From Octopus vulgaris (Eukaryota), in assembly GCA_951406725.2 (NCBI GenBank), contig OX597833.1:48608001-48672000 (forward strand): a DNA stretch of 64,000 nt. The letters run 5' to 3'. The notes beneath the pieces are model-generated. The model made no database searches. It was not told the DNA's origin and saw nothing but the letters and a program-made list of their open reading frames with translations. Positions 6,606 to 56,400 of this stretch are shown in pieces. The position numbers were made by a program, and so were the translations under genes. Positions within the stretch are counted from its first letter, which is position 1. Every line of letters begins with the position of its first letter.

Positions 6606-9600
6606 TCATCATCATCATCGTTTAATGTCCGTTTTCTATGTAGGGATAGGTTGGACAGTTTGACTGAGGTCTGGAGAGACAGTGGCTGCAACAGGCTCCA
6701 ATCTGATCTGGTAATGTTTCTACAGCTGGATGCCCTTCCTAACGCCGACCACTCCGAGAGTATAGTGGATGCTTTTTAAGTGCCACGTTTGGATGATGCT
6801 TTTACGGGCCACTGGCACGGGAGCCACTCAGTGGTGGGGAGGGGGCCACTGGCCACAGCTACAATATTGGTTTTACTTGACTCATCAAGTCTTCTCAAGC
6901 ATATCATATAGCCTGACGCATCCGGGGTATTCTCAACAGGGTCTTCTCAATCACAGCATATCTCCAAAGGTCCCAGTCTCCTGTCATTGTCTTTTATTTT
7001 CCTAAAATTTTCATTGCGTCTTGCAACCTTTTCAATAGTCTTGACTCTGTCCATTATTTACACTATGTTCCCTTTTGTTTGTTTGCGGACATGTGTGTGG
7101 GTCAGTGTGTGTGTATGTGTGTGCCTGCACGAGAAGAAAATGACCCTCCCCAGACACAACAGAATATGTTTCAACACACGAACTCATATAAAAAATCTTG
7201 CAAACCAAATCCCAAAACGAAATAGTTCTATTTTTTTATGTCAGATTTGTCTGTGATTTCTCCATGATACAATTTCTTTTCTTGATTTCATGGGTTGCAT
7301 TCCATAAGTATTCTCACCACCATTTCATTAGGGTACTGATTTATTTTCAGTTGCTTTGTTTGTTTAAGATAACTTTCGTTGAAGAGCACTTAACCTAAGA
7401 GATAGCTTTAATACCATGATATAGATTCATAACCTATTACATTAGAGTTACTACTGATGGTAAGATTGATAATTGAACTACTGTCAACAAACATCAAACA
7501 CCACTGCTAATAATTATTATGCTGAATTATTATAATTATGCCAAGTCAATGAGTGCACTTAATTGGCTATTATACATGACTGCTATTCCCGGCAGTGCAT
7601 TGTGTCCTTGAGCAAGACACTTTATTTCACGTTGCTCCAGTCCACTCACCTGGCAAAAGTGAGTAGTACCTGTATTTCAAAGGGCCAGCCTTGTTACACT
7701 CTGTGTCATGCTGAATCTCCTTGTAAACTACGTTAAGGGTACACATATTTGTGGAGTGCTCAACCACTTACACGTTAATTTAATGAGCAAGCTATTCCGT
7801 TGATTGTATCAGCTGGGACCCTCGTCGTTGCAACCGACAGTGTGTTCCTTTATGCATGACTGCTAATATTATATTAACAAGGCATGGTGGCGAGCTGGTA
7901 GAATCATTAGCACATCAGGAAAATCTCCACCAGTATTTAGTCCATCTTTACATCCTGATTTCAAATTCTGTCAAGGTCTACTTTGTCTTTCATCATTTTT
8001 GGGTTGAATAAGTACCATTTGAATACTGGAATCGATGTAACTGACTTGCCCTTCCCCTAAAATTGTTGGCCTTGTGCCAAAAATTTGAAGCCAATATTTA
8101 AGGCGGTAAGCTGGGCAAAATGTTTTTGCAACATTTAGTCCATCTTTACATTCTGAGTTCAAATCCACCGAGGCCTACTTTGCTTTTCATCCTTTCGGGG
8201 CCAATAAAATATGTAGCTGTTGAGCACTTGGGTTGATGTAATCGATTTGTTCCTTCCCCTGAAATTACTGGTTTTATACCAAAATCTGAAGCCAATATTT
8301 TATTAACAGGGTAAAGTGGCAAGCTGGCAGAATCATTAGCACACCAGCCAAAATACATTCTGAGTTCAAATTCCACTGAGGTCTACCTTGCCTTTTTTTC
8401 ATCATTATTATTACATTGACCCAGTCCTCAACTGGTACTTGTTTTATCGAACCCGAAAGGATGAAAGGATAAGTCAACTTCGGTGGAACCCAATAATTAT
8501 AATACTGCTTTCTAACATAAACAAAATTCTTCAGCGAAGTGGACAATTAGTTAAACCAACGCAAATATATGTAAGAAATAATTATGATAATGCTTTCTAA
8601 CATAAACACAGGGACATGATTTTGTGGGGAAGTGGATAGTTAATTAAATTGACATAACTATGTAACAAATAATTATAGTAATCCTCTCTACTATGAGCGT
8701 GGAGGTGCAATGGCCTAGTGGTTAGGGCCGCGGACTCGTGGTCGGAGGATCGCGGTTTCGATTCCCAGACCGGCTGTTGTGTGTGTTTATTGAGTGAAAA
8801 CACCTAAAAGCTCCATGAGGCTCCGGCAGGGGTTGGTGGTGACCCCTGTTGTACTCTTTTGCCACAACTTTCTCTCACTCTCTCTTCCTGTTTCTTGAGT
8901 AACGCTGTGATGGACTGGCGTCCCGTCCAACTGGGGGGACCACATATACAACAGAAACCGGGAAACCGGGCCCATGAGTCTTGCTAGGCTTGAAAAGGCT
9001 GACGTTTATCGTTTTTCTACTATAAGCACAAGGCCTGAAATTTTGGTGGAAGTGGATATTTGATTACGTCACCACTATTGCTACTTGCTTTTTATCGTCC
9101 CCAAAGGGATAAAGAGCAGAGTCGAACTTAATGGAATTTGAACTGAGATTGTAAAGATGGACGAAATGCCACTAAGAATTTTGCTCACAGTACTTATTTG
9201 AACCCAGAATGAAGACATATAACTAAATACTGCTACCACCTCCATTTAAGCATAACCATAATAATGTAGTTTTGGTGGGATCTGTATAGATCTGGTCCAC
9301 TCATTCCATTTCTCTCTAGGGGTCTTTGGCCATTGAAGTTATAGCAGGGGTCTACCTCTTACTGATCTAGTGGGGCAGAAACAACTAAGGCCATGTTCCT
9401 TGTCACATAGAGAGACAGAGTGGACTAAACAGAAAAGGAGGAAACATGTGGATGGAAGAGTTGCTGAAGAGGTCACAGGTGTGTGACGAAAGATTTCCAG
9501 ATTATAATGGACATAAGATAAAATAAGAACAATTATATATAGTGCATGTATTTATTTGGCAAGTAAAAAAGTAAAAATGACCATCCCAAAATATAACAAC

Positions 9601-10223
9601 ATATCATCATTATTTAACATCCGCTTTCCATGCTAGCATGGGTTGAACGATTTGACTGAGGTCTGGTGAACCAGATGGCTGCACAAGACTCCAGTCTGAT
9701 CTGGCAGAGTTTCTACAGCTGGATGCCCTTCCTAATGCCAACCACTCTGAGAGTGTAGTGGGTGCTTTTACGTGCCACCAGCACGAGAGTCAGTCAGGCG
9801 GTACTGGCAACAGCTATGCTCAAATAGTGCTTTTTATGTGCCACCTGCACAGAAGCCAGTCCAGCGGCACTGGCAACGACCTTGCTTGAATGTTTTTTCA
9901 TGTGCCACCAGCACACGTGCCAGTAAGGCGACGCAGGTAATGATCACGCTTGAATGGTGCTTTTTATGTGCCACTGGCACGGAGGCCAGTTTGTTGCTCT
10001 GGCAATGATCACACTCGTATGGTACTCTTAATGCTCCACTAGCATGGATGCCAGTCATTGAATTTGATTTCAATTTCAAACGTATATTTAAGGGAATGCA
10101 TTGACCCTTGCTGTGGTACTGCAACTAACTCTGCCATTCTACAGGTTATAACCGTTATTATTATAAACACTGCAAACAGATTTAATGTCCAAACAACTAC
10201 TACTGCATAAACACTGGTGCTGT

Positions 10224-10254
<31 letters not shown>

Positions 10255-10461
10255 GCTGCTGTTGCTGCTGCTGCTGCTGCTACTACTACTACTACTGCTA
10301 CTGCTGCTACTACTACTACTGCTGCTACTACTACTACTGCTTCTGCTGATACTACTACTGCTTCTGCTGATACTACTACTGCTGCTGCTGCTACTACTAC
10401 TGCTTCTGCTGCTGCTACTACTGCTGCTGCTGCTGCTGCTACTACTACTACCACCACCACC

Positions 10462-10507
<46 letters not shown>

Positions 10508-10879
10508 AGTTTTCTGATATGTTCACAGTTATATAGCGGCACAACAATCAATGAAACTATTTCTTTTTTTTTCCGACCAACAATTTTTCTTTTTAACGTT
10601 TAACATTTTTTCCATGTATTTGCAGAAATCAATAGAGAGCTATGTGGATAAACGAGTGGGTAACACCTATGGACCCACGGCGGGGAAGAAGATGAGTGTC
10701 TTCATTGATGACATCAACATGCCAGTGGTGAATGAATGGGGAGACCAAGTGGCCAATGAAATTGTGCGTCAACTCATAGAAATGAATGGTTATTATAGTC
10801 TAGAGAAGCCTGGTGACTTTATAAACATTACAGATATACAGGTTATTATTATTATTACTATTATTATTATTATTACTAA

Positions 10880-10931
<52 letters not shown>

Positions 10932-13900
10932 GAGTGAGAGAGCAGTGCATGCCATCAAAGTGACACTGGGGTAAAATATACGAAGCCCAGTATACCCGTC
11001 ATGACTACCCATCTGATAAGGGTACACTAGGCACATGCATCACAACCATATGTGCACGACATGGTGATCTCATATCAAAATAAACAGCGCATGACCTTGC
11101 AGATGAGGACCAGTTAGAACTTTCTTCTGCTTGAGTAACCCATCCCGCTCAAAAGGTCCCTGAATAAGGGTTGTTTAAGGATGTTAAACCAGCAATATAC
11201 AGAAAAACAGTGCCAGAACAGGCGCTGGTGTTATAATTAGCCAGTGAGCTTCTTAAAAAAAATATATATTAACCACAGAAGCATATTTTAAAACACACAT
11301 ATTTATTCTTTTATTCTTTTATATGTTTCAGTCCAATGACTGTGGCCATGCTGGGGCATCGCCATTCATTTATATGAACTTTATTTTCACTAACGACAGC
11401 ATTGTTTCTCTTGAACTCTAGCTTTATATTTTATTAAAACAAAATTAATTGATTTTAATTTTACCACTAAAATAAAGATTAAGAATATGCTTAATAAATC
11501 TATTTTGAAATATTTTTTTTAACATTTTCTATTGCTTAGTTCTTGGCATCTATGATACATCCTGGTGGAGGCAGGAATGACATTCCACAGCGCCTAAAGA
11601 GACATTTTGCAATTTTTAATTGCACTTTACCATCTAATACATCAATAGACAAAATCTTCTCAACAATTGGTTTGGGTCATTACTGCAAAGAAAGAGGTTT
11701 TGCAGCAGATATCATAGAAATGGTTCAAAAACTTATTCCTCTCACAAGACGATTATGGCAGCTAACAAAGGTATGTATTGCTGTTGCTGTTGTTGTTGTT
11801 GTTGTTGTTAAGCAACAAGATGGGTAAGTGGGGTGATTAGGTGATGGTCTAGGGCTTAGGGGCAGGAGACCCCAGACCTTGGGAAAAAAAACCCAAAAAA
11901 CTTTGGTCGACTTGTTGTAGTCGAGGGCTCTTAATTGATGCCCGACACCACTGGGAGGTGGTCCTCAAAGTCGCTGGAAATGGAGATCTCCGGGTCCAAA
12001 TTCTTGGATGGCTGCTGTTGCTGTTGTTTCTGTGATATAATTAGTAAATTACTTAATGGAATGGAGAGTTGCTGTTAATTACATGCATGTGCATATGCAT
12101 CCACACATGCATATATATTTGTGTGTGTGTGCATGCATGCATGTACATATGCACACACACACACATTGGCCTGTCTACCTGGCCAGTGGAGTGGTTTCAT
12201 TTGAAAGTTACAACAATGTAAGGATGCATATTGTGACCAGCTGTATATAACAACATCTGATAGTGTTTGGTCAATATAGTGATATATACATAGGTTATTT
12301 AAGCTGATCCAGTGGCCTGTTATTTTGGCAGTTTCCTGATTTGTAGCTGGTTCCTTAGACAAATCAAAGACAGATGACTGGATATAGAAAACAAATCACT
12401 CCACATAGTCATGTACATGTATATGAGTGTGTATATTGTCACAATTGGGCAGCAAATCTTATATCAAGTTCTCAGATTTCAGTGATAGTAAAAAAACGAT
12501 GAAGATGCTCCAGTGCTTATATTCAAAGTGTTGTCAGCTGGTATGTTAGGGCAGATCTGCATTCATGAGGACAGGAACAGAAAACTTCACTGCTACAGTT
12601 AAGGTAGGTGCTTCAGTGGAGAGAGATCTGTAGAAGATCCCTTTCTCAGCCAAGCACAGCCAACACCTCCGACTACTATTAATGTAAAGTTTACACTTTT
12701 CTTGTATCCTCCACTTGTCTTAATGTGTAGTATTTTCCCTCAATAGCTATATATACCTTGCTAGAGATGTGACATTTTGCCTCTCCTTGATGTTAAATGA
12801 GGAATTATGGTTATTGAATCTGGTTCTGAAGGGACTTGCTGTCATGCCTACATGTTTTTGTACATCTGTCACTCTACTTGGATCCTTTGGTGCCACCTTT
12901 GCTTTATATACATTTTCTATATTGCCGACCAAGAACCCACTGGCTTGACACCATCAAGAGTGATACCGGAATGGACATAGCCAATCTGAAAGAAGCGGCC
13001 CAGGATAGAACTGACTGGAGGACACTGATCCAATGAGTGACCGAGAGTCGACTTCGACTGAGCAGATAGAGAGAAAGATATTGCAATGGCCATTAACTTG
13101 ATATGTGGTTACATCTCTATATGAATTCTGCCACAGCCTAAATATGTGTGGATAAAACATAGCAGAAATATAAAATACTATGACAAACAGATATCAGACC
13201 ATCCAAAAGGAGGAGAAATATGAAGTTAACATAATGTATAAAAAAACCCAATCTTTTTGTAAATATAAATTCATAAAATAACGACTACTAAAATACTTCA
13301 TTCATAAACAGGTAAAAATGCTACCAACACCTGCAAAATTTCATTACATTTTTAACTTGAGAGACTTGTCCAGAATCTGGCAGGGAATGATCAATGTTGA
13401 GTCATCTGTCATCAATTCTACCAAATTATTGCTTGGTTTATGGAAACACGAATGTAGTCGTGTTATCTCTGACAGGTAAGAAAGCTAGTTGTTCTTTATT
13501 TACTCTTATTTTATTTCTGTTATGATTTCAGTCATTAGACTGTGGCCAGGCTGGGATATCACCTTCAGGGTTGATACCCCAGCATGGCCACAATAATTTA
13601 AATCTGCTACTTATTTTATTGAACACTGTTCCAGAGGAATTACAACAGTGTTTAGTGGTCTGCTACCACCACAGCTCCTTTATAGGATCCAGTTAGCTCA
13701 AGACATCTTTATAGGATCCAGTTAGCTCAGACCTCTTCTGTTTTGACATGGTGGGGCCCCCTTCCTTTCAGAGGTATCTTCAGCTCTGGTGTTGGGTGCA
13801 CATCTTCATTCTTCTGTTCCCTGGCCTCTTTGATGTATCGTCAGCGAGTGTCAGCCAGTGACTGACTGACTTGTCAAATTATTCCCTTTAAATACCTGCC

Positions 13901-14538: not shown

Positions 14539-14599
<61 letters not shown>

Positions 14600-14781
14600 G
14601 TATCTATGTATGTATATATATATGTATATATATATATATATATATAATATATATATATGTGTGTGTATGCATATATATATATTAAACATTCTATATCTTA
14701 TATATATATATATACATACATACATGCAAACACACATACACACACATACACAAACACACATACACATTCACACATACATTT

Positions 14782-14837
<56 letters not shown>

Positions 14838-19125: not shown

Positions 19126-22100
19126 CACACACAGACACAATGTGTTTGTGTATCTCATGCAACATGGTTAAATTTATAGTAAGATAACAGGATAATGCTT
19201 TTAGAAGGAGAGATTATGAAAGGTAAAGATGAAAGAAAATAAAAGAAAATGAAACAAAATAAAATGCAATAAAATGTACGAGAGTACAAGGCGGTACAAG
19301 GAGGTTTAATTTTCTGTAATAGGTTTATGGATATAAAAGTTTATGGATATAGAAATTTATGTAATCATTGACTTGGAAGCTCTCACAAAATAAGCTACAA
19401 CTCTCAGCAAAAGGCTCTTTCAAGGTCACACACCATACGTAGGGTAAACTATCTGTCTTTCTATCTACCTATCAAACTATCTATCCATCTAGCTATTGAT
19501 CTATCTGTCTGTCCGTCTGTCTATATATCAACCTATCTCTCTGCCCTTCTGTTTATTTGTCTACATATATACTTGCTATATCTACTTCTATATCCATAAA
19601 CTTTTATATCCATGAAACCTTTAAAACAATTGTAGCCATACAACTATTAAAGAAAATTCAAATTCCTTATACCTCCTCCTTGTACTCAACAGCCTTTTAT
19701 TGTATTTTGTCTTATTTTCTTTAATTTTCTTTCATCTTCCTTCTTACCTTTCCTCTCCTCTCCTACTGATGGTGTAATACACTTATCTATACTTTGTGTT
19801 TGTTTGTGTGTATGTATGTATTTGTCGCTATGATAGATCGTTAACCACTACACACATTTTTTTCTTTCCTTGTTTTTTCTGTGTCCCTTTCTGTAGAAGA
19901 GCATAGGCTCGAAACGTAAAAGACTTTTTCTATTCCTGAGCGTTATACTAATACATCTGTTTGTTTTGTACACCACCTGTCTTTGTCTTTTGTTTTTTTC
20001 GTAAACTCTCCCTATAAATATATATATATGTTTGGTGATGCAACAGGAAAATAGAACTCCAAAACATAAGTGTCTATTTTTTTTATTAATAATCTCTTTA
20101 TAATCTCAAAAGTTACAGAGTGACTCAAGGGCTGAGAATTTCATGCATTGGCACTTACAAAGTTTGATTGATATGTGCATTAGTATTTGTCAAATTTGAA
20201 ATATATTGGGTCATCACATAAATAATGAGGTTTTTTAATACTCCTTTTGTTTTTCAAAATTAAGATAAACAAAGTTGTTTTTTAATCCAAAATATACTCT
20301 CTTTTGTTTTCTAAAATGCTTTTCCATCTATCAGGTAGACTTGCATGGTCCTTCTTCCAAAATTCACTTGTCCGTGATGAAAAATACTCCTCCAGTACTT
20401 TTCTGACCTCATTTACAGAATTCATATTTTTTCTGTCCAAATGATTTTGAAGACTGTGAAATAAATGATAATCATACTGGGCAATGTCCAGGGAATATGG
20501 TGGGTGCTGCATTGTTTCCCATTCAAATCCACTCACAAGTCTTTGGTCGGCCTGAAGCTCTAGTAGAAGACACTTGCCCAAAGCACCACACAGTGGAACT
20601 GAACCTTGAACCATGTGGTTAGAAAGAAAACTTCTTACCACTCAAACTATTGCAATTTTATAAAATGTAGCAAATTGTCCACTCCTTTATCACAAGACCC
20701 CAACCAACTGGAAAGTGGGGAAAATATATTCTCGAATCTCACTATGAGAAATTCTGACCACGTAATCTGCAGGTTTCATCCATGAATGTAGATTTTCAGA
20801 GTTTATTTTTAATACGGTATACATTTCTTGCAGAAGTACAATTTGGTCAGTTATAATAATTTTAATCTTTTTTTCACTATTTTTAATCTTTTTGTCCAGT
20901 AAGTAACATCACAACACCAGTAACAATTTCATCTCTTTCAATGAAGAATTTCACTTAAAACTGTAAACTTATCTGGCTTCCTCTCTGTATAATGATTTTT
21001 GTTTGCTTGTTTTTTTTTTTTTTGGGGGGGGGGTGAAAATTTACCATTGTGTTACTATGGTTATTTTTTTACTAACTAAAATCTAAATAAGTGATTTTGA
21101 GTTCCACTTATTTACCACTATCTTTATCTTTTACTTATTTCTGTCATTATGCTGTGGCTTTGCTTGAGTACCATTTCGAAGAAATTAAGTCAAATAAATT
21201 GACCCCAGTTCTTTTTCTTGTTTTAAAATCTGGTGCTTATATATTACAGAGATGTACTTGCATAGCAAGTGACTTGATCTGAGATTGTGTGCTGAAACGA
21301 AAACAATTGCAGTGTGGAAGGTGTTTATAAGCCATTTAAGAAACACACAAAAGCTGTCAGATTCACTTCAACATTTAAATTTCATTTGTTAAAATATTTT
21401 CGTCGCTTTGAGATCGCGAACTATTCACTGACAAAATTTCGTGCTGCATCTCAATGAACAGGTTGTGGTCTCAAAGTGATGAAAATATTTTGACAAATTA
21501 AATTTAAATGTTGAAGTGAATCTAACAATTTTTGTGTGTTTCTTAAATGGTTTATAAACACCTTCCACGCTGCAATTGTTTTCGTTCCAGCACACGATCT
21601 CAGATCAAGTCACTTGCTATGCAAGTACATCTCTGTAATATATATATATATATATATACACATACAAGAGGCTTTTTTCAGTTTCCATCTACCAAATCCA
21701 CACACAAGGTTTTGGTTGGCTTGAGGCTTTAGCAGAACACATTTGCCCAAAGTGTCACACAGTGGAACTATATTCTGTTATTTTACATTATTTTTAACTC
21801 TGTAAATTATACCAGCGAAGAAAAAAGGCCATTGAAGATGGTGGCTGCTGCTTCTGCTCTTGTTGTTCATGTGTTTCATGATCTGGTAGTAATTAATATC
21901 ATAATTCTAATTCTGTCATTTCATACTGGTAATATATAAATGTGAACTATAGAACCTTTTATTCATATATGTAAAATTGACATTTAAAGACTAAACTTGC
22001 TTCCCTAGTGTGCCTTGCTCTATTTCTATGATAGTAATTTTCCATTACCTCCCTAACAATTCAACACTAAATTGACACATTCCTGTCTGATAAATTAAGT

Positions 22101-39953: not shown

Positions 39954-41319
39954 GACACACACACTCACACACACACACACAGATGCACACACACAGACAC
40001 ACACACACAGATACACATACACACTCCCCCCCACACACACACGGTTTCTTTCAGTTTCCATCTGCCAAATTCAACCTCAAGGCTTTTGCTCACTCAGGGC
40101 TATATAGTAGAAGACACTTGCCCGAGATCCCCCACAGTGGGACTGCACCCAGCAACATGTGGTTGGAAAACCCACTTCTTAACCACACAGTTAAAAGAAA
40201 AAAAAAACTTCTTTTGGTATTTAGTTATCCTTCTTTATATTCTTCAAAATTGTCTTAGTTTTCTGAGTTGATAAAATAAGTAGCAATAATGTGGTACTTC
40301 AATCACCTCCTCTCTTTCTCAAACCCTAGGTAAGGGCTGGTTGGTGGCGAGCTGGCAGAAATGTTAGCATGCTGGGTGAAATGCTTAGCAGTATTTTGTC
40401 TGCCGTTACGTTCTGAGTTCAAATTCCACCTAGGTTGATTTTGCCTTTCATCATTTTGGGGTCGATGTAATTGACTTAATCCATTTGTCTGTCCTTGTTT
40501 GTCCTCTCTGTGTTTAACCCCTTGTGGGTAGTAAAGAAATTGGTAAGTGTTGGTGACAGGAAGGGCATTCCTCTATAAAAAAATCTGCTTCAGTAAACTC
40601 CTTTTGATCCATGCAAGCATGGAAAAGTGGACCTTAAAACAATGATGAGCAATGAAAGCTGTTCGATAATAAACCCCTTACACGTTTTCTTTTTACTTTT
40701 ACATTTAATTTAGGTCGATGAACAGTTTCGTCTCCGGTCCTTGAAATTTCCAGGTCTCATCTCTGGTTGTACAATTGATTGGTTTCAACGCTGGCCAAAG
40801 GATGCACTTGTAGCTGTTGCTAATCACTTCATTTCTAATTTCGATATTGCATGTACAGATGAAGTAAAGAGAGAGCTCGTATATGCAATGGGTTCCTTTC
40901 AGCATGGTGTGTCTGAATGCTGTACTGAATATTTCCATAGGTAACTACATGTATTTTTGTACAAGATATTTATTTAAATTTTACAGCTTTTATTTGCTAA
41001 AGATGTATTACACACACACACACATGATGGAGTCAAACCAAGTAATTATGTTTTGAATGTCCATAGAGTGTTCAAGTTGACCCCTTGAGAATATATTCAC
41101 CCACTGCCATAGGTGAATGATATATAGGTATGTATGTATATATGTATATACGTGTGTATATACATAACAGTGGTGAAAAGTCCTGGCTCGTATATGCAAT
41201 GGGTTCCTTTCAGAATGGTGTGTCTGAATGCTGTACTGAGTATTTCCATAGGTAACTACATGTATTTTTATACAAGATATTTATTTAAATTTTACAGCTT
41301 TTATTTGCTAAGAATGTAT

Positions 41320-41353: not shown

Positions 41354-43378
41354 CACACACACACACACACACACACATACAATGGAGTCAAACCAAGTAA
41401 TAATGTTTTGAATGTCCATAGAATGTTCAAGTTGATCCCTTAAGAATATATTCAGCCACTGCCATAGGTGAATGATATATAGATATGTATGTATATATGT
41501 ATGTATATACATAACAGTGGTGAAAAGTCCTGGCTTTGGGTAAAATAAAATACAGGATCAGTTAATTGTGATTTTATTCCCCTCTCAGATTCACACATTT
41601 ATTGCAGCAGCCCTTCAGTTTTTCTAAGCTCTGTAAAAGACCTTGGAAAATTGAGCCTCCAACCAGGCCGTTTGTGATACCCTTAGAACCCTGAATTTAT
41701 TAGTAGCCCTCCATACACACACACACACACACGTGTGTGTGTCTTTGCTAAATTAACTTGATTTAGCAAAGACCAAAGTCTTAGCAGATAGGAAAACAGA
41801 CAAATCACAAATCCCTTCAGGGAGATGGCCCTGCTTGGTACATAGAAACCCCTTAAGGTGGACCTGGTGTAAACTAAAGTGTAAATGTCAGATCATTGCA
41901 TAATATATAAAAGGAATTCATCTAATACACAAGATCTTCTTCAGTTAACCCTTTCGTTACCAACCCGGCTCTGGCTCTATAGTACAAATGTCTTGTTTTC
42001 ATAAGTTCTGAATTAAAATCTTCCACCAAACCCTAGTCACAATTTATGTTCCTAACATTAGCTTAGTGATAACTAAGTGATTTTACTAAATTCTTTGTTA
42101 TATTTAAAGTAATTGAAAGAAACACAGACCATCTCAAAATAAATACAGTAACAAAAGGGTTAAGATATTTTAAAATATTTTGAAATGTTTTACCTAAGGA
42201 TCTTGCATAAGTGATGATTTTATTTTTACCTATTGTGCAATGATCTGAAATGAATATATATTAAATGTTTCAAAAGTATCATTACTGGGTTTCATTTCAT
42301 TAATATACATTATACAGCTCTATAACATACAAAGTATCCAGTTTTTAGTCTGTTTACCCAGATATACTAACAAGGATTTGGAGTGGTTTGTTCTATTTGA
42401 CTTCAATTGAAAAAAGTTGGTAATTAGCATTTCTTCTAAGCATAACACAAAATTTATATAAACAGCTAACACAAGTTTTAATCTTGTGATTTCTATGGTG
42501 TAATGAGTACAATGTAACTTTTATTTTGTAAATCATTAAATATATATATATATATATATATTCAGTCCCGCTGCGTGGCATCTTAGGCAAGTGTCTTCTG
42601 CTATAGCCTCGGGCCGACCAATGCCTTGTGTGTAGATTTGGTAGACGGAAACTGAAAGAAGCCTGTCGTATATATGTATATATATATGTATGTGTCTGTA
42701 TATGTTTGTGTGTCTGTGTTTGTCCCCCCACCATCGCTTGACAACCGATGCTGATGTGTTTACGTCCCCGTCACTTAGCGGTTCGGCAAAAAGAGACCGA
42801 TAGAATAAGTACTGGGCTTACAAAAGAATAAGTCCAAGGGTCGAGTTGCTCGATTAAAGGCGGTGCTCCAGCATGGCCACAGTCAAATGACTGAAACAAG
42901 TAAAAGAGTAAAAGAGTAAAGAGAGAATGTATATAAATAGAAATATTACATTTCTAAATATCTCAGAGAAATATAAGCAGTAGTGGTACAATAGAGTAGT
43001 TGTATACTGTCAACTTAATGTGACAGTCCCATGAAGGAAATCACACCACTGCTATTTAGCCATAGGAAGCATCAACGCTTCCTGTCGGCCTTGACACATT
43101 TCCTGTGTCCTTATGTTCACAAGGGGGAGACAAGCACTTCCACCCAGCTAAGCCTGCACCCAGAGACTAGTTTCTCAGTCTTTTCTCATCATCAGTCTGG
43201 AGTAGCAGTCTGGAGTCCGTCCTATGATGGATGGATGGATGGATGGATGGATGGATGGATGGATGGATGGATGGATGGATGAATGGACAGACGTGTGTGT
43301 GTGTGTGTGTCTGTTCATGCTTATTGGTGTAATCTGATATGTGAAACACATAACTTAGCAATTTGGACGGACAGACGG

Positions 43379-43420: not shown

Positions 43421-45304
43421 TTTGCTTATTGGTGTAATCTGATACGTGAAATACATAACTTGGCAATTTGGTAAGCAGAGAATTAAAAAAATAAATAGGA
43501 CTGAAATAAGTATTGGGGGTGAAGGTGAATGACCAAAACCTTCGAGGGTGGTACCCCAGCATGGCCACAACTCAACAAGTAAAACCAGTAAAAAAGTAAA
43601 ATAATAAAACAATATCATAATAAGCATTTTTCAAATCTACTTAACAGGTACCGAAGATCAACACATGTAACACCAAAATCTTACTTGTCGTTCATAAATG
43701 GATACAAGACTATTTATACAGAAAAGAGAAAAGAACTTGGTGAAATGGTTGAGAGGATGAATACAGGTAAGTACAGGGGCCAGACTAAGACCCCTAGAAA
43801 ACCTGAACCCTTAAAAAATGTTGGTGTCCCCCATATATAAGGAGTGGCTGTGTGGTAAGTAGCTTGTTTACCAACCACATGGTTCCAGGTTCAGTCCCAC
43901 TGCGCGGCACCTTGGGCAAGTGTCTTCTACTATAACCTTGGGCCGACCAAAGCCTTGTGAGTGGATTTGTTAGACGGAAACTGAAAGAAGCCCGTCATAT
44001 ATATGTATATATATATATATGCGTGTGTGTGTTTGTGTGTCTGTGTTTGTTCCCCCAACATCGCTTGACAACCGATGCTGGTGTGTTTATGTCCCTGTTA
44101 CTTAGCGGTTCGGCAAAAGAGACCGATAGAATAAGTACTGGGCTTACAAAAGAATAAGTCCCGGGGTCGAGTTGCTCGATTAAAGGCGGTGCTCCAGCAT
44201 GGCCGCAGTCAAATGACTGAAACAAGTAAAAGAGTAAAAGAGAGATATGTAATCCAAAATATAAACAATAATAAACCATTAAATCATCATCATCGTTTAA
44301 CGTCCGCTTTCCATGCTAGCATGGGTTGGACGATTTTGACTGGGGGCTGGCGAACCAGATAGCTGCACCAGGCTCCGATCTTGATCTGGCAGAGTTTCTA
44401 CAGCTGGATGCCCTTCCTAACACCAACCACTCCGAGAGTGTAGTGGGTGCTTTTTACGTGTCACCGGCACGGAGGCCAATCAGGCGGTACTGGCAACGAT
44501 CTCGCTCGAATCTTTTTACACATGCCACGGCACAGGTGCCAGTAAGGCAACGCTGGTAACGATCATGCTCGAATGGTGCCTTTTACGTGCCAGTTTGCCG
44601 CTCTGGCAACGACCACGCTTGGATGGTGCTCTTAGCACCCTACTAGCACGGGCACAATTGCCAGTAAGGCGACACTGGAAACGATCATACTCGAATGGTG
44701 CCTTTTATGTGCCACTGGCATGGAAGCCTAACAATAAGATGGAAAATAATTTTTATTTGTGTGTACTTCCACTACTTATATTTGAAAAGTTTTCTTCTAT
44801 TTCTTTTAATTGCAAAGTCTTTGGTCAGATCCTTACTTTGACACCATGAACTCTTCGAAATTATATTTCTGATCATGTAAACCACTTTGAATATAATTTT
44901 TGCAAGTTTAAAATGATTTCTTTTGTGCAATAAGCCATTTACTATTTCTGTGGTACTCCCCCCCCCCGACTGTCCACTTCTTTTGATGTTCTAAGTATGT
45001 GCTTATTTTGCTTAATGGTTAATCCAGTGCTGGGCAAATATCATCATTGATCAAGTGTCCGCTTATGCTTGCATGGATTAGATGATGTACATGGAGACAG
45101 ATTTTCTACAGCCAAACACCCTTCCTATTGTCAACCCTTAGCAAAGTAATATTTACCCATAGCTGGCTATGTTTTGACCGAAGTCTGGAAATGTGTGAGG
45201 GAAAACTGACCTTGTTTACGACTACCATGTGATGTTAGTAGCCCGCACTCTTAACCACTATACCATGTGTCCGAGTTCGATTCCAGGCAGTGACCTGAAT
45301 AATG

Positions 45305-45351
<47 letters not shown>

Positions 45352-45633
45352 CAGATACCAGGAAACCCCAAAATGGTAGAAATTCAAAAGATAGTGCTCA
45401 TGGGAACTGCTCATATCCTACACAAAATACTTTCTATGTAATCTCAAGTTTTAAAACAAACATAATTTTCGTATGTTTTTTTTAGGCATTCACTAGTACA
45501 ACACTAAGTACAAAACCAAATATATGGCACCCTAGGCATAACACCAACATGAACTTCCAACTTGTTGTCTCTTGAGGTCTCTGGGTGAGACTTGGAACCA
45601 TCTTGTGCAAATGTAAGGCAAAAGTCAAACATA

Positions 45634-45675
<42 letters not shown>

Positions 45676-48600
45676 CAATAACATGGAAAAATACCTTAGG
45701 AATGAGAACCTAGGTTCGAAATTTCCCCAAGACACCTGATGAAGGCTGGAGGGTATATCAGCCGAAATATTGTGTTAACAACAAACAAGATGAGGACAAA
45801 TATCCATCAAATGTAAATAATGTCTGCAAACAATGTTTCGTTTTTTTTTTTGTTTCTGTGCAAGTCACTTAATTCTTGTCTCTTCAGCCACCTACACAAT
45901 TTTTCCACAATAATAGTTCAGTGTACTCTTTGCCTATGAACCGATACTTTCAATTATTCAATGTTCTCATTTGTCCCTATTGTATGAAATGAAGTATATC
46001 ACTTAGTTTTGTGCTAGTATATCATTTAGTTTCATGCTAGAGCATGAGTTACCTCATGGTAACCTACTTTTGACTGTTGCTCAAATGTGTGTTGTTGGTA
46101 TTTTTTTACATCACAATTGTTGACATAATGACCTACTTTTTGTTTCACTTTGCTAACATTCTCAGAAGATATGATGGCCACAACTTCTACCTCATCCTAA
46201 TCCTGAAATGCCATGCAATTGATTCAATCACTGCTTTGCATGGATGAACAATTTTCAATTAACATACATGTTTAAACGAAAGCCAATTACAATACATCTT
46301 CTACTTAAACCAGTATATCACTGTTTAATGAGCTCCTCTCTCCTTTCTCTCACACACAAACAATCACATACACATAAGTGTTCTTAAATAGTGGAGACAG
46401 ATAAATAGACAGCACATAAGAGTAGTCTGCTTTAAAAGGTTGTACTAGTCTATAAAACTTTAAAAATATCAACAAGCTTGACTGAAATACCAGCTCTGTG
46501 ATACACATTTCTATAGTATTAGATTATATAACTTTTAAAGTGTTTGCTTTGTTAGGTTAGAGGGATAGAGAAATATTCACCATTGGAGGAAGTTTATTGT
46601 GTAAAGGTACAGTGAGTCATAGAAAGCTAAATGAGCTGTACAGGTGCTTGCTTAATCTTGGAAGTGCTTCTTGCAGGATCACCTTGAGTAAGCATTGGTG
46701 ATAAGGAGGATTATTTTAAAGTTGGTATTTATTCTCAGATAGCAATATGGTAAGTACAGGAGCTGTATTCAGAGTGTATATCACACAAAAGCAATCCTTT
46801 ACATACTTTCTTTGTAGATGATACTGTTGTGTGGTAATTAGTGGTTGTTTCAACTTAGCCCACATGTTGTAAGAAATGGTCTCCACTGCTACAGCTACAA
46901 TGATAATATGTAATCTTACATTTAAACTAAAGAGTGGATTAAACCATATTATATTCCATTTTCTAAATGTGAAACATTTGCCCCTGCTTAAGCGAGAAAC
47001 TGATCTTATAGAATATCAACTTTGCTCTCAAACATCATAATAATAAGAGGCAGCTTTATAAAGTTTTGCAATATCTGGAATTAAATTTTGTAACTTTGAA
47101 AGCTTTGTTAAATTTAATTAAAAAGTGCAGAGACATGCACTAGTTCCAAATTTTGGTTGAATTCAGTTCAGTTCCAATTTTCGTTTGGTTCCACTTAGAT
47201 ATATATATTTTGTGGGGTAGCATTGTGGAAGCTAAAGCAGTGACTCATAGAGATTAGATTTTGGATGCAAAACAAACAGCTTCTCAGGTGCAAAAAATAT
47301 GAGTTACAATGTGCAGTTTCCATACAAAAGATATAATTTTCCTTCAAATTTAATAAAAATGTCAAGATTATTTATAAATTTAATGCATAAACATGTTATT
47401 TTAAGTTCATTAAATGGTAAAGTACACGTGTCATTTTCAACATAGAATTTATTTTTTACTTGTGAAGTCAAGCATAGTTTTCTCCGTTTATTTTCATACT
47501 AAATTGTAAAAATTAATCAATACAAATAATTAATAATTAAAATAATAAACACTATTTCTTAGCACCAAATTTAGGACTCTGAATTATGTTAGAAAAATTA
47601 ATCAAATAAATAATAATTCAATAAATTAATTGAATTAGACACTGAAAATTTATAATTGTCAAATTTATTAGATGAAAAACATTTCTTATTTTTTACTTAA
47701 ATAATTTATAAAATGACTGTTTGCATTTGAATGATCGTTGACAGAGCGGCTATTCGAATATGATCATTACCAGTGTCGCCTTACTGGCACTTATGCCTGT
47801 ACTAGTAGGGTGCCAAGAACACCATCTGAGCGGGATCGTTGTGATCATTGCCAGAGCAGCCAACTGGCTCCGTACCCGTGGCACGTAAAAGGGCACCATT
47901 CAAGCGTGATCATTACCAACGTCGCTTCACTGGCACCTGTGTTGGTGGCACGTGTAAAAAGATTCGAGCGAGGTCATTACCAGTACCGCCTGACTGGCCC
48001 CCGTGCAGGTGGCACGTAAAAAGCACCCACTACACTCTCGGAGTGGTTGGTGTTAGGAAGGGCATCCAGCTGTAGAAACTCTGCCAGATCAAGACTGGAG
48101 ACTGGTGCAGCCATCTGGTTGCCAGCCCTCAGTCAAAACCGTCCAACCCATGCTAGCATGGAAAATGGACGTTAAATGATGATGATGAATATCAACAGAA
48201 CAAAACAAAATTCAAAATCTATTAAAAAGTTATCAAAAATTCATATGTATTGTTTTTTAGTTTTATTGATTTTTAAACTATTTACATAATTTTGTACTGT
48301 TATTGTTCTCAAATTTCTATCCCTGTTCCCGTGAGCATCATGCCTGAATGTAGCAAAGAACTTAACATCAACATTTTCTTCACACATTTTGAGTTCATTA
48401 GCATTTTTATATCATTGACATTTTGCTAATTATGAAATTTACTTCTTGACTATAGTTTACTAAAAAATACGTTTTCTGTTTGTAAGAAGCTTTGCCTGTA
48501 AAAAGAGTGGACTAGCAGGGAAAATAGGGCCATGGATATGACAATATTCTTAACAAATTGAATAGAAAAAAGTACAAGATGAGAGATAGAAGCTTTAAAA

Positions 48601-48797
48601 ATAGGTTGTGCAACCACTCATCTATATATATATACACTCACGGAGTGGTTGGCGTTAGGAAGGGCATCCAGCCGTAGAAACACTGCCAGATCTGACTGGG
48701 CCTGATGAAGCCTTCCAGCTTCACAGACCCCAGTTGAACCGTCCAACCCATGCTAGCATGGAGAACGGACGCTAAATGATGATGATGATGATGATGA

Positions 48798-48838
<41 letters not shown>

Positions 48839-50968
48839 AAGCTACGAAGAAATCACAAAAACTTATTCAGAGTTTCACATTCCTATTCGTCAAACAAACA
48901 GGAACGTGAAACTCTGAGTAACAGATTTTGTGATGTTTTGCAGCTTTATTAATAAAGCATTTTACTCTGTCTTTGGTATTCGAGTACTATTTTTTCCACC
49001 TTGTTTCACATTTATGTGCTTACTCTGTTATACATATATATATATATATATATCATCATCATCATCATCGTTTAACGTCCGCTTTCCGCGCTAGCACGGG
49101 TTGGACGGTTTGACCGGGTCTGGGAAGCCAGGGGCCACTCCAGGCTCCAGTCTGAATCTGGCAGAGTTTCTACGGCTGGATGCCCTTCCTAACGCCAACC
49201 ACTCCGTGAGTGGATTGGGTGCTTTTTACGTGCCACCTGCACAGGGGCCGGAGGGTCCGGCATCGTCACGATCGGTTCGAGCATTTTAACGTGTCAGCGG
49301 CACGGGGGCAACGAGGTCCGGGGTACTTTGGGGATCGGGGTACTTTGGGGATCCAGGGTACTTTGGGGATCCGGGGTACTTAGAATGGGTAGGGGGTATG
49401 TGGAATTGCTGCAGAAAGCAGCCCGGGTCTTTGTAGTCACAGCATATCTCCAGAGATCTCGGTCCTTCGCCATTGCCTCAGTGAGGCCCAATGCTCTGAG
49501 GTCATGCTTGACCACCTCATCCCATGTCTTCCTGGGTCTACCTCTCCCCCTGATACCTTCAACTGTTTGGGAGTGGCACTTCTTCACACATCTCTCTTCA
49601 TCCATCCGCAGCACATGACCATACCATCGCAAGCGTCGCTCTTGCACACCACATCTGATGCTTCTTATATCCAGCATTTCTCTCAGGATACTTACACTCT
49701 GTTTTGCGTGCACACTGACATTACACATCCAGCGGATCATGCTAGCTTCATTTCTTTCAAGTCTACGCATGTCTTCTGCAGTCACAGCCCATGTTTCATT
49801 ACCGTGAAGCATGGCAGTTCGCACACATGCATCATACAATCTACCTTTTGCTCTGAGGGAGAGGCCTTTTGTTGCCAGTAGGGGTAGGAGCTTTCTGAAC
49901 TTTGCCCAGGCTATTCGTATTCTAGTGGTGATATTCTCTGTGCATCCACCTCCGCTACTAACTTGGTCTCCCAGGTAGCGGAAACTATCAACTACTTCTA
50001 GTTTCTCTCCCTGGAGTGTGATGGAATCTGTTTTCTGAGTGTCTGTTGTGTCTATTGTCCCTGTGCATCTGCCGCACATGAAAGCTATCTTATCTGTTAA
50101 TTTCCCTTTAATGTTGCTGCACCTCTTATGTGTCCATAACTTACATTGGGTGCATCTTATGGAGTTTCTACCTGTACCTTTCCTACAGGTTGAGCAGGGC
50201 CACCTACCCGAGGGGATGTGTGTTGAGTACCTCTTGCTGCTTACTAATACTTTGGTCTTTGCTACATTTATTCTAAGGCCCTTTGATTCCAACCCTTGCT
50301 TCCACACCCGAAATTTCTCTTCTAGTTCCGGTAGTGATTCTGCTATGAGAGCTAGGTCATCGGCATAGAGGAGCTCCCAGGGGCATCCCGTTTTGAATTC
50401 CTCTGTTATTGCCTGAAGGACTATGATGAATAAAAGGGGACTGAGGGCTGAGCCCTGGTGCACACCTACTTCTACTCGGAATTCTTCACTATATTCGTTG
50501 CCAATCCTAACCTTGCTAACAGCCTCTCTGTATAGAGCCTGTACAGCCCTTATTAGCCATTCTTCAATCTCCAGTTTCCGCATCGACCACCAGATAAGGG
50601 AACGGGGAACCCTGTCAAAGGCTTTCTCCAAGTCTACAAAAGCTATGTAGAGGGGTTTATCTTTAGCTAGGTACTTATATATATATATTATTTATGCTCC
50701 CTTTTCAAGCCTAGCCAGGCTCATGGGCCCAGTTTTCCAGTTTCTATGGCGTATGTGTTCCCCCCAGCTGAAGAAAGAGTGAGAGAAAGTTGGGGTGAAA
50801 GAATACAACAGGGGTCGCCCCCCCCATCCTTGCCAGAACCTCGTGGAGCTTTAGGTGTTTTCGCTCAACAAAGACACACAACACCTGGTCTAGGAATCAA
50901 AACTGCGATCCTCCGACTGTGAGTCCGCTGCCCTAACCACTGGGCCATTGCGCCACCACACACACACA

Positions 50969-51002
<34 letters not shown>

Positions 51003-53109
51003 AATATATATGCATACACATATACAGATTCAGTCAATTCAAATAAATGAATAACAAGATGAAAGCAAGAATGAACGTGAGGATGTGCACAATAAATGTA
51101 TTAGCTTCTCGCTTGGTGAAAAGAGAGAGTTTGACATTTTGAGCATAGCTCTTCATTGGAAAGGAGAAAGGGAAAAGTCCAAAGAAGGAAAAGAAATCAC
51201 CAACACATGTAGTTACATCCTCTATATATATTATACACATAGATACACACACACACACATATGTATACATGTATGCTCATACATATGTGTATGTATGTCC
51301 ATGTCTGTGAGTGTGTGTTTGTAAATATAATAGTGCTAATAAAATCTGCATTTTTTTTTCCTTTCACCTTTTCAGTTTTAAAAAATGTATTAATTTGGAT
51401 TTTTCTGTATGAGAATTATTGTAATTAAGTTTTCAAAATGATTTGTTATAGGTTTGGAGAAGTTAATAGAAGCCTCTCTCACAGTTGTTGACCTCAAGAA
51501 ACAGCTGGTGGTGAAAGAGAAGGAGCTTACTGTGGCTACCGAGAAAGCTGAAATGGTGTTAAAAGAAGTTACTGAGAAAGCAAAAGCCACCGAACAAAGT
51601 AAAAACAAGGTGCAGAAAGTTAAAGACATTGCTCAACAAATAGTAGATAGCATTGCTACTGATAAAAACATAGCCATGGAAAAACTAGAAGCTGCTCGTC
51701 CAGCCCTGGAAGAGGCAGAGGCAGCTTTAAATACGATACATCCAGCTGATATTGCTACTGTCAGAAAACTTGGCCGCCCACCACATCTGATTATGCGGAT
51801 TATGGATTGTGTGCTGATACTCTTCCGCAAGAAACTAGACCTGGTTGTGACTGATTCAGAAAAACCAGGGTTCTTGAAACCGTCATGGGGAGAAACATTA
51901 AAAGTACTGTTATTTTCATTTTGCTTTCATATATTTTGCTAAATCTTTTTGCTTTCATGAAAATATACTTTTTTATTGATTTATTTTTTTTACAGCATAG
52001 TTGTACTGTTGCCCTGTAAATGGTTGTAAACCCCTATTTGTAATGTGCTGTTGATCATTTGTTTAACCCTTTTGTTACTAACCCGGCTGAAACTGGCTCT
52101 GGTTCTGAGTACAAATGTTTTGTTTACATAAGTTTTGAACTAAAATCTTCCACTAAACCTTAGTCACAATTTATGTTCCTAACACTAGTTGAATGATAAC
52201 TAAGTTATTTTACTAAATTCTTTGTTATATTTAAAGTAATTGAAAGAAACAGAGAGCATCTCAAAATAAATACAGTAACAAAAGGGTTAATGCTTTATTA
52301 ATTCTTTTTACTAGTGAGTTCAAATTCCACTGAGGTCGACTTTGCCTTTCATCCTTTTGGGGTCGATAAATTAAGTACCAGTTACGCACTGGGGTCGATG
52401 TAATTGACTTAATACCTATGTCTGTCTTTGTTTGTCCCCTCTATGTTTAACCCCTTGTGGGTAATAAAGAAATAGGTACAAGGCCTGAAATTTGGGAGAA
52501 GCGGGAAGGTAGGTGATTACATTGCCACCAGTGCCTGACTGAAACTGTATTTTGTTGACCTCAAAAGGGAGACAGGCACAGTTGACCTTGACAACATTTG
52601 AACTCAGGATGTAAAGTTGGAAGGAATGCCTCTAAGCATTTCGTTCAACCTGTTAATGGCTCTGCCAGCTTGCTGCTTGGTGAGCTGGCGAAATGCTTAG
52701 TGGTATTTTGTCTACCGCATGCCAGGTGAAATGCTGAGCAGTATTTTGTCTGCTGTTACATTCTAAGTTCAAATTCTGCCGAGGTTGACTTTGCCTTTCA
52801 TTCTTTCGGGGTCGATAAATTAAGTACCAGTTACACACTGGGGTCAATGTAATCGACTTAATCACTTTGTCTGTCCTTGTTTGTCCCCTTTATGTTTAGC
52901 CCCTTGCGGGCAATAAAGAAATGAGAATTGTCAATACACCAGGCAAAATATTTAGCAGTATTTCGTTCTGAGTTAAAATTCCACTGAGGTTGACTTTACC
53001 CTTCATCCTTTCAAGGTCGATAAATTAAGTACCAATCAAATACTGGGATTGATGCAATCGACTTACTCTCTCCCCACAAATTTCAAGCTTTGTACTTATA
53101 TTAGAAAGG

Positions 53110-53158
<49 letters not shown>

Positions 53159-53367
53159 GGTGGCAAGCTGGCAGAATTGTTAGCATGCCAGGCAAAATTC
53201 TTAGCAGCATTTCATCCATCTTTACATTCCAAGTTCAAATTCCACTGAGGTCAACTTTGCCTTCCATCCTTTCAAGGTCAATAAAATAAGTACCAGTTGA
53301 GTACTGAGGTCAATGTAATCAACTACCCCCCTCCCCAATTTTGGGCCTTGTGCCTATAGTAGAAAGG

Positions 53368-53412
<45 letters not shown>

Positions 53413-56400
53413 TCTAATGTTCAGTCTTAACTTGCAAATCATCAGTGTCATTAAACTCTGAGCATTACTGTCTCAAGTTCAAGGACTTGTGGGGACAGTT
53501 ACCCTGTTTCCATGTCCCATAGATATTTGAGATCTCAACATGCCCCTGGATAGGACACTAGTTCATCGCAGGGTTACTCATTTACAGATCAGTGGACTGG
53601 AGTAACATTGACTGAAGTATTTTGCTTTGCTCAAGAACACAATGCCCCACCCAGTTCTGGGAATTGACACCATGATGATGTGACTGCAAGCATTTTGTCC
53701 GTCTTTACATTCTGAACTCAAATTCTGCCTTCACCACTATGTCATCTAGCTTTCCACCACAATATTAGTATCAGTTATCACCACACCAGACCCTATCACC
53801 TACTGTCATCATCAGTGTCACCACCAGTTTTCCTGTTGGTCACCACCAGTATCTGTTTGTTGGTCTACATCTCATACTGGTTTCAGTATCTTTAATCTAT
53901 ATTCACTCTACATGCCAATCATCAATCGTCATCGTCTTCGTCTTCTTCATCATCATCATTGTTATTATTTCTGGAATGAGATGATTGTATGTAGCTGTGT
54001 TGGATACTGATGTTTTGGCATAGCTGGAGTAGACATTCAGCCTGTTTTGGCCATGGTACTTTTTGGCACTTGGGGCAAACACACTCACACACACACACAC
54101 ACACTCATATATATAGGTATTTGTAAAGGTAAAAGTTTAATAATCACAGATGATTATCTTAATGACTTGTAGGAAAATGATATTTTGTTATGCAACCATA
54201 GTATACGATAAAACAAATTAAACATTTTTTATAAGCCAATACTGTGTTTTCCTGTGTTAGCAGTGTGCAAGATAATTATCTATTTGTTGTTTAAATGTTT
54301 CTGATAATTTCTTCCATTTTTACTCTTTCTTTTGTGTTAAGATGATGAGCGGTGCTGGTATGCTGCAAAGTCTAATGTCTTTTCCCAAAGATTCCATAAA
54401 TGACGAAATGGTTGAACTATTACAACCATATTTAAAAATGGAAGATTATAATTTAGAAGTGGCGAAAAAGGTATGTGGAAATGTTGCCGGATTACTATCT
54501 TGGACGAAAGCTATGGCTTATTTCTTTGAAATTAACAAGGAAGTCCTACCTCTTAAGGTTAGTTTTTCATATCTTCTTCATTTTTCTGCACATATGTATT
54601 TTGACACTGATATACAATAAGATATATAATATTTACTCCATTAGCACTGATGAGTTTTGATTAAGAACTGAAATATGTATGTACGCAATATAAATACGTA
54701 CAAACATTTGTATGCATGTGTGCTTGTGTGTACATATAAATATATATGTGTATATATAAATTATATATATATAGTAATAAAGGGTATGGAGACTTGTACA
54801 TCCACAAAATTCATCTTATAGTTATATACAGCATATTATAATGACCTACACATGTTTCCACTGCAGTGAATACTCACTGTTGCAACTGTAACATTGCAAT
54901 ATTTTTGGTGCAGCTTCATTAGGGTCCGTTCATTTGATCATGCTTAATGTGTGTATGTGTAAGCATTCTTTGTCTCACAGATACAATTCAATGTCAAAGA
55001 GTCAGTTCATTTTCATAACTATAACAAGCTATAACAAGTTATACATAATGTAATGACTAATCAATCTCATTCATCTCTTCTTCTTAATTGTTTGATCTCC
55101 ATTACAGGACAATCTGGCAGTGCAAGAGGCCAAACTTCAATCGGCCAATGCTGACCTCATGAAAGCAGAAGACCAACTGAGCGTCCAAGTTGCTAAACTT
55201 AATGCAGTCAAAATTGACTATGACCGAGCTATGGTTGAGAAACAAGTGAGGAGTCATTAATTACATTAATTAATTTTTTTTATTCTTTTCCTTTTCCTTT
55301 CTTTATTTTATCTTGAAAGTTATTTGGCAACCTCACTAGTGCTGGTGTTGTGAAAAACTCTTCCGGTACAGACTGTAAAGGGGGTGGCATTAGGAAGGGC
55401 ATCAAGCCATAGTAAACCATGCCAAAGATATCATAGGGACTGGATGCAGTTCTGTTGCTCATTGGACCCTGTCAAACCATTCAACCCATGCCAGCATGGA
55501 AGTTGGATGTTAAATGATGATTATTTCTTTATTGCCCACAGGGGGCTAAACATATAGGGGACAAACAAGGACAGACAAGGGGATTAAGTCGATTATATCA
55601 ACCCCTGTGATTAACTGGTACTTATTTAAATCGACCTCGAAAGGGTGAAAGGCAAAGTTGACCTCGGCGGAATTTGAACTCAGAACATAAAGACAGACGA
55701 AATACCTATTTCTTTACTACTCACAAGGGGCTAAACATAGAGGGGACAAACAAGGACAGACAAGGAGATTAAGTCGATTATATCGACCCCTATGATTAAC
55801 TGGTACATATTTAATCGACCTTGAAAGGATGAAAGGCAAAGTCGACCTCAGCGGAAATTGAACTCAGAATGTAACTGCAGACAAAGTACCGCTAGGCATT
55901 TCGCTCGGTATGCTAATGTTTCTGCTAGCTCACCACCTTGGATGTTAAATGATGATGATAGCAATGATACTTACCCAACTGATGAAAGTCTTGGCCTGAT
56001 ATATCAGATCACTCTTTTCCCTCATAGCAAACTTACTTATGTCAGTTGCAAAGTGCTGACATTTAGTATTTGTTAACACAAAGGCAGTGAGCTGGTAGCT
56101 CTGTGGAGGCGCAATGGCCCAGTGGTTAGGGCAGTGGGCTTGCGGTCAGAGGATTGCGGTTTCAATTCCCAGACCAGGCATTGTGTGTGTTTATTGAGCG
56201 AAAACACCTAAAGCTCCCCGAGGCTCCGGCAGGGGGTGGCAGCGGCTCCTGTTGTACTCTTTCACCACAACTTTCTCTCATTCTCTCTTCGTGTTTCTTG
56301 AGTAACACTGCGATGGACTGGTGTCCTGTCTAGCTGGTTGGGAACACATATGCCACAGAAACTGTGAAACCGAGCCCATGAGCCTGGCTAGGCTTGAAAA

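Follow-up and report, generated by a model that had tools for sequence, protein, structure and literature searches.

A short octopus element with a tRNA-related head and a hammerhead motif that probably borrows the protein of Penelope-like elements

Minimal type-I hammerhead ribozymes have been described since 2014 in the pseudo-long terminal repeats (pseudo-LTRs) of endonuclease-positive Penelope-like elements (PLEs) (Cervera and de la Pena, PMC4209133). Two kinds of short element carry type-I hammerheads as well: Sm-alpha and Sj-alpha of Schistosoma, which resemble short interspersed nuclear elements (SINEs) and join a tRNA-related RNA polymerase III (Pol III) head to the hammerhead (PMC2770079, PMC6765202), and the metazoan non-LTR retrozymes, which are PLE-derived (PMC7229834, PMC7761336, bioRxiv 10.64898/2026.07.22.740005). 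We analyzed such motifs in a 64,000-nucleotide (nt) stretch of Octopus vulgaris DNA (contig OX597833.1, positions 48,608,001 to 48,672,000; the window), which lies within a 2.8-Gb assembly; family searches were run against the whole genome. We consider it probable that the motifs are mostly decayed hammerheads of PLE-inserted families, and that one of these, family A, is a tRNA-headed short element likely borrowing PLE protein. Scattered minimal PLE hammerheads in many families per genome are already known and by themselves ordinary; family A is the new part. No description of a PLE-dependent tRNA SINE was found in the literature searched, outside which lay Repbase, Dfam, most subscription journals and the repeat library of the octopus repeat annotation, a source that lists 190 PLE families and whose text and supplement contain none of the words hammerhead, ribozyme or retrozyme (PMC13282606).

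The window copy of family A spans 45234-45823, and thousands of copies are present in the genome. In order, they consist of an 84-nt head, an (AAT)n run, a segment of ~50 nt, the hammerhead, and a tail of ~85 nt, with a total length of ~270 nt when the AAT run is short; the element is non-coding. The head, which was missing from an earlier model-made account of the window (the sequence-only reading), aligns end to end with the genome's own tRNA-Arg genes (z ~10), tRNA-Arg being the best of 30 tRNA loci of six amino-acid types compared, and within it lie what we take to be A and B boxes. The hammerhead has a 5-bp stem I; at family level its palindrome is ACGT and its cleavage position is occupied by U, and the window copy is CpG-decayed. 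The tail is predicted to form a hairpin that holds the short 3' end in its loop (centroid structure), for the RNA as a whole, folding is no better than that of shuffled sequences (z 0.17), and the natural copy that was folded contains no run of four U. Changes within the family look like decay and are largely CpG: among 66 copies, non-CpG core columns vary at 0.023 versus 0.048 for the flanks, and the stems are no less variable. The proposal that stem sequences differ while pairing is kept holds between families but not within them, where decay rather than covariation predominates.

Head, (AAT)n, hammerhead and tail travel as one unit. One exact 46-nt A hammerhead occurs 848 times in the genome, and among its first 30 copies on contig C1, 16 have a head within 500 nt, of which 11 are full length. 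Conversely, a query with the head only recovered a hammerhead within 400 nt downstream in 18 of 30 loci and some piece of the body within 1.5 kb in 24 of 30, the longer head-to-hammerhead gaps being due to insertions nested within the AAT run. The ~50-nt segment is preceded by an AAN-AAN run at 3,625 places, compared with a non-A context at 27; 18 of these 27 abut another A piece, and none share an upstream frame. Other elements are repeatedly found nested in the AAT run (window 45350-45634 and loci L188, L195, and L294).

Full-length A copies start at the tRNA-like 5' end, and an inverted A piece abuts 69 of 105 such ends in a set of which 30 loci were retrieved by a query that favours inverted copies (27 nt of inverted tail). 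For ordinary SINEs at the same loci, an inverted piece was found at the 5' end in 1/122, 0/74, and 0/53 or 0/79 (a third SINE, both orientations), whereas in two A sets not picked for inversion an inverted copy lay within 900 nt in 20/30 and 19/30; direct tandems numbered 0/30 and 2/30. Family A has two fixed, non-repetitive 3' ends separated by ~34 nt (of 70 copies, 31 have the long end and 39 the short), and the simple-repeat 3' tail of the type seen with long interspersed nuclear elements (LINEs) is not present. In inverted pairs these two ends are combined by rule: 71 of 78 pairs consist of a long and a short arm, versus 38.9 expected (p ~1e-14). The same long/short rule was seen, with a longer tail, in 6 of 7 pairs of an autonomous PLE family and 9 of 11 pairs of family B; a count for family E was discarded because an internal palindrome interferes. 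Inverted copies also occur in families B, C, E, F, and H. No target-site duplication was detected in the six A copies tested, the longest shared word being 4-7 nt against a control mean of 4.7.

These insertions resemble those described for PLEs, whose hallmarks include an adjacent inverted copy and a tail of 30-40 bp, in many cases confined to one end (Craig et al. 2021, PMC8557442). Within the portions of the PLE papers used here, the likeness extends to an optional, often one-ended tail of 30-40 nt and an inverted, 5'-truncated copy; the anatomy reported there is that of an autonomous element, whereas here the signature, with its long/short rule counted, sits on a non-coding, tRNA-headed one. 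In vitro, the anole PLE Poseidon starts at two internal sites, cuts and extends both target strands, and can dispense with hammerhead cleavage (Frangieh et al. 2024, PMC11167929). As family A insertions carry these PLE fingerprints, it likely hitchhikes on Penelope rather than LINE proteins.

The closest precedent for family A is, as far as the sections of the schistosome papers used here extend, Sm-alpha. Sm-alpha and Sj-alpha share with it the tRNA-related head, the hammerhead and a high copy number; however, they often occur in tandem, and cleavage frees monomers from the multimers, whereas family A is monomeric or inverted and its hammerhead is minimal. The PLE tail and inversion signatures of family A are not mentioned for Sm-alpha in those sections, and the likeness drawn here is one of description. 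The non-LTR retrozymes, in the excerpts drawn on, are likewise non-autonomous, bear a type-I hammerhead, and have a proposed dependence on PLEs, a description that families E and D fit (arrays of 351 and ~229 nt); they are defined by tandem repeats and circular RNAs, unlike family A, which is without tandems and has its own tRNA-related head, and unlike families B and C, which are the ends of autonomous elements. One of these sources reports that 8 of 9 frog retrozyme dimers were uncleaved in vitro (bioRxiv 10.64898/2026.07.22.740005). On the features tested, family A falls outside both LINE-dependent SINEs and tandem retrozymes.

We suggest that family A is likely a Pol III SINE mobilised by PLE protein with its hammerhead uncut in the template. 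RNA polymerase III would transcribe it from the internal A and B boxes, reading past the tail, and its single hammerhead, with nothing but a palindrome for stem III, would remain intact, since the inserts hold both sides of the cleavage site. A PLE protein would then bind the tail and nick both strands of AT-rich DNA; reverse transcription might begin at two internal sites, one per nicked strand, and the joining of the two cDNAs at their distal ends would produce an inverted insert. For the strongest form of this proposal, that family A is a true Penelope-dependent SINE whose inserts record twin-priming from different internal sites and that such a pairing is previously undescribed, we see slightly better than an even chance. 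SINEs are normally defined as passengers of LINEs. If the proposal is true, family A adds a second carrier for SINEs (PLEs beside LINEs), a cis signal shorter than 150 nt is enough for mobilisation by PLEs in trans, and schistosome Sm-alpha could be re-explained. The long/short rule and the families with altered cores make both the formation of PLE inverted inserts and the need for hammerhead cutting testable.

Several results weigh against this proposal. No autonomous PLE with the hammerhead or tail of family A was found in the four PLE clades sampled, a non-exhaustive search that did not cover LINEs, and no partner emerged from the 27 copies in a non-AAT context, from endonuclease and reverse transcriptase (RT) searches, or from other hammerheads ending like that of family A. 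Among 147 A loci, compared with 154 PLE-like proteins, no PLE frame was continuous with the element. Pfam found no family in the 1,312-amino-acid frame of the autonomous PLE described below. The head was called a tRNA in 0/6 loci by ARAGORN and in 0/6 by Rfam, which found no hammerhead there either; it is too degenerate for both. In addition, for 4 of 30 heads the 1.5 kb to either side contained no piece of the body. RNA sequencing (RNA-seq) data were taken from two runs, possibly of another species and of unknown strandedness, of which ~6% each was read (7,782 and 6,227 reads placed): depth on family A was equal on both strands, 87-88% of reads continued into unrelated sequence, and there was no pile-up of starts or ends in either run, so neither cleavage nor a separate Pol III transcript is indicated. 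The reads break off from the element at the same two 3' ends seen in the genome, and what they show is only transcription of embedded A copies. No recorded RNA data set was listed as containing family A.

Since the AAT run does collect nested insertions, in the window copy among others, and since the anole PLE cuts 5'-ATT-3' according to the part of PMC11167929 used here, family A might not be one element at all, and a hammerhead mini-element might instead insert, time after time, where an ordinary tRNA SINE has its (AAT)n tail. We regard this as improbable: inversions mirror head, AAT, hammerhead and tail jointly around the 5' end of the head (L357, L284, L298, and L340), inverted tails are joined straight to the head (L355, L358, and L363), some copies link head to body without any AAT (L416 and L419), and the window's other AAT/ATT runs are without an A body. 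An ordinary LINE-dependent SINE with a dead PLE fragment as passenger would account for a tRNA-related head resembling those of the genome's other SINEs and for the missing PLE partner, but it sits poorly with the two fixed, non-repetitive ends in place of a simple-repeat tail, with inversions that duplicate the 3' end and are almost never seen at the 5' ends of the control SINEs, and with the lack of target-site duplications in the six copies tested; we think it unlikely to be the explanation. We give similarly little credence to spread as a retrozyme, in which dimeric hammerheads would cut tandem transcripts that then circularise and undergo rolling-circle copying. The intact core of the 848 exact copies and the lower variation of the non-CpG core columns speak for it, and it fits the three-hammerhead array of the 351-nt family E and the four-unit array of family D; against it, family A has next to no direct tandems, and its order is always head to tail, with a head never following a tail.

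It could also be argued that the motifs arise by chance in DNA rich in AT and in repeats. The Rfam check proposed by the sequence-only reading gave 126 matches in the window at E<=5, none of them to any hammerhead family, and most window copies fail a strict descriptor; for the site at 54644, chance holds as far as tested, as it has no relatives in the genome and a site of equal quality arises in 16% of shuffles. Overall, however, we see hardly any prospect for this explanation, and for seven families it is refuted. The expectation that motif frequency would exceed that of dinucleotide-shuffled sequence was borne out: a strict type-I descriptor found two window sites (9464+ and 45736+) versus 0.03 on average in 30 block dinucleotide shuffles, allowing one core mismatch gave three (19891+ added) versus 0.5, and a relaxed descriptor gave four sites scoring >=7 versus a mean of 0.18 in 200 shuffles. 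Across the genome there are 9,887 matches to a core pattern that closes with the ACGT palindrome and 325 to the reversed pattern, a ~30-fold excess, with family A making up 81 of the 100 first-listed matches, and motifs are positioned downstream of PLE endonuclease frames.

All nine stretches that the sequence-only reading had listed as hammerheads are present in the window sequence at the positions given, and its claim of a shared grammar stands for seven of them, which belong to high-copy families with the type-I order; it does not extend to 51130, probably a decayed relative of one family, or to 54644. In sequence, the motifs are mostly decayed minimal type-I hammerheads near the 3' ends of seven high-copy families, all of which were likely inserted by PLE RT-endonuclease proteins. 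Genome searches returned 2,339 candidates for A (45731), 2,525 for B (9461), 3,743 for C (7002), 1,655 for D (19887), 2,378 for E (43160), 826 for F (54843), 1,446 for H (48861), and 1 for 54644, figures that are first-look candidates and not copy numbers. Where the window copy has decayed, its relatives still follow the hammerhead grammar, and 16/31 relatives of A, 8/33 of B, and 8/23 of E pass the strict descriptor. The core boxes CUGANGA and GAAA and the UH cleavage site hold at family level in A, B, C (as a U3-A8 variant), E, F, and H. By inspection, A, B, C, D, and F also have the extra base after A9, the G10.1-C11.1 pair and the palindromic stem III, while E and H have 10.1-11.1 pairs other than G-C. 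Much of this matches the PLE hammerheads of PMC4209133, in the parts of that paper used here: the type-I order, the extra base after A9, G10.1-C11.1, the palindromic stem III, many unrelated families per genome present mostly as single copies from truncated elements, opposite-strand pairs 100-700 bp apart, and the U3-A8 variant, published for schistosome PLEs. Those parts report no tRNA-headed family, and the octopus differs further in one young autonomous family with C9 and in family D with U6. Fold prediction of the short motifs was uninformative as to self-cleavage. Further unrelated minimal hammerhead families occur elsewhere in the genome (L146, L151, L258, and L368-L371).

The coordinates of all features are collected in Table 1, including three stretches with motif copies beyond the original nine (1437-1700, 26935-27002, and 34177-34499).

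Table 1. Hammerhead-bearing families and other features of the window (positions within the 64,000-nt stretch)
Feature	Position	Strand	Remarks
Family A, remnant of tRNA-related head	45234..45306	+	inverted piece 45234-45272; sense B-box end 45270-45306
Family A, (AAT)n linker	45298..45681	+	split by nested insertion of ~285 nt (45350-45634)
Family A, body	45682..45823	+	~50-nt segment, hammerhead 45731-45776, tail to short 3' end
Family B, 5'-truncated 3' end of autonomous PLE	9405..9600	+	hammerhead 9461-9500, core intact
Family B, extra decayed hammerhead region	26935..27002	-	
Family C, PLE 3' end, same clade as B	6992..7224	-	U3-A8 hammerhead 7002-7038
Family C, inverted tail piece	7127-7224	+	
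Family C, extra inverted pair	34177..34499	.	exemplar search of window
Family C, extra inverted remnant	1437..1700	.	exemplar search of window
Broken GIY-YIG endonuclease remnant, separate older PLE clade	12582..12926	-	
Family D, ~200-nt unit ending in (TA)n	19824..20030	+	hammerhead 19887-19922, U at core position 6
Family E, part of 351-nt retrozyme-like unit	42927..43207	-	hammerhead 43160-43200
Family F, older element	54765..54941	-	hammerhead 54843-54926, long branched loop II
Family H, inverted junction of two arms	48838..49035	.	decayed hammerhead 48861-48896 on minus strand
51130 motif, both core boxes broken	51130..51162	-	by eye; no BLAST match from D exemplar at 1e-4
54644 single-copy motif fitting relaxed descriptor	54644..54682	+	no genome relatives
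Dynein heavy chain exon-bearing stretches	13282-13476, 40714-40941, 51442-51900, 54330-54560	+	Pfam

The proposed link to Penelope elements and the existence of multiple families were both supported, but not all families are the non-autonomous mini-elements that had been envisaged: A, D, and E look so, whereas B and C are 5'-truncated 3' ends of a clade of autonomous PLEs with RT and GIY-YIG domains. Endonuclease-like remnants lie in sense 500-800 nt upstream at 6/30 loci of B and 1/20 of C. The clade also has a young family, for which there are 154 or more close matches (L241-L270 and L271). One member, L271 (C15:42993441-42997379), has an intact frame of 1,312 amino acids, in which we recognised by eye what are presumably the RT and GIY-YIG motifs, together with an adjoining inverted truncated copy. 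The tail 3' of the B and C hammerheads encodes the first 30 residues of this frame. Linkage to Penelope RT/GIY-YIG frames was accordingly established for B and C, but no continuous frame was found for A, D, E, F, or H. At 7002 the core is not the CUGANGA that had been read there; a U3-A8 variant is found throughout family C. In the printed copies of the young L271/L241-L270 family, C replaces A at core position 9 of the hammerhead, and this altered core apparently sits in a recently active element. Two further young PLE families (L337 and L386), with frames of ~811 and 781 amino acids in many copies, have U3-A8 hammerheads, and in the L337 family stem II is only 2 bp.

The GIY-YIG relic noted by the sequence-only reading is indeed PLE-like (12582-12926) and matches a 750-amino-acid protein with a weak GIY-YIG match and 150 genomic places. 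However, the hammerhead found downstream of 2 of 20 loci of its clade is a different one, with none of those of families A to H seen there, so none of the nine motifs has the relic as its partner. Pfam gave nothing significant for the relic and three PLE frames, with GIY-YIG found only for P0001 and L386; a homolog search with 59 amino acids of the relic found none, and a PDB sequence search gave nothing useful.

Families E and D probably belong to the non-LTR retrozymes and would be copied from RNA in tandem or circular form. Family E forms a closed 351-nt unit with one three-hammerhead array (L119) among 20 loci, and several copies cross the unit junction; its head-to-tail evidence is limited to these. 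Stem I is 6 bp in its relatives, and stem II is damaged in the window copy. A link between family E and a second young PLE (L109) was rejected, as the L109 family has its own hammerhead. For family D, one four-unit array and one two-unit site were found among 20 loci, with a tandem unit of ~229 nt. The core at 19887 had been grouped under CUGANGA, but all 19 of 19 family D copies have U at position 6, and relatives with an intact core exist (L375-L378); that D amplified with U6 while older relatives keep the intact core suggests that cleavage is dispensable for mobilisation.

Family F, whose relatives have an 8-nt palindrome, runs at least 530 nt upstream with no recognisable frame, and family H is short. 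No linked RT/GIY-YIG frame was found in 20 D, 20 E, 24 F, and 15 H loci, the few matches being neighbouring elements; as these loci reach 1.5 kb, F and H could still be truncated ends. The motif placed at 48861-48925 is real, but it belongs to the minus strand, spans 48861-48896 and lies within an inverted junction. At 51130, where a hammerhead had also been read, the family D exemplar gave no match; resemblance by eye points to a probable decayed relative of the D group. The 54644 motif may be chance or an orphan.

The window corresponds to introns of a plus-strand dynein heavy chain gene, with Pfam matches on 4/4 exon stretches tested, and is rich in SINEs and microsatellites. The motifs at 9461, 19887, 45731, and 54644 share the sense orientation of this gene. 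Long inverted pairs of other repeats lie at 5649-6140 and 21238-21644, the former giving rise to spurious Rfam microRNA matches. Finally, different PLE-type elements adjoin each other's 3' ends, often via (TA)n runs (L097, L084, and L109), an adjacency that suggests shared microsatellite targets.

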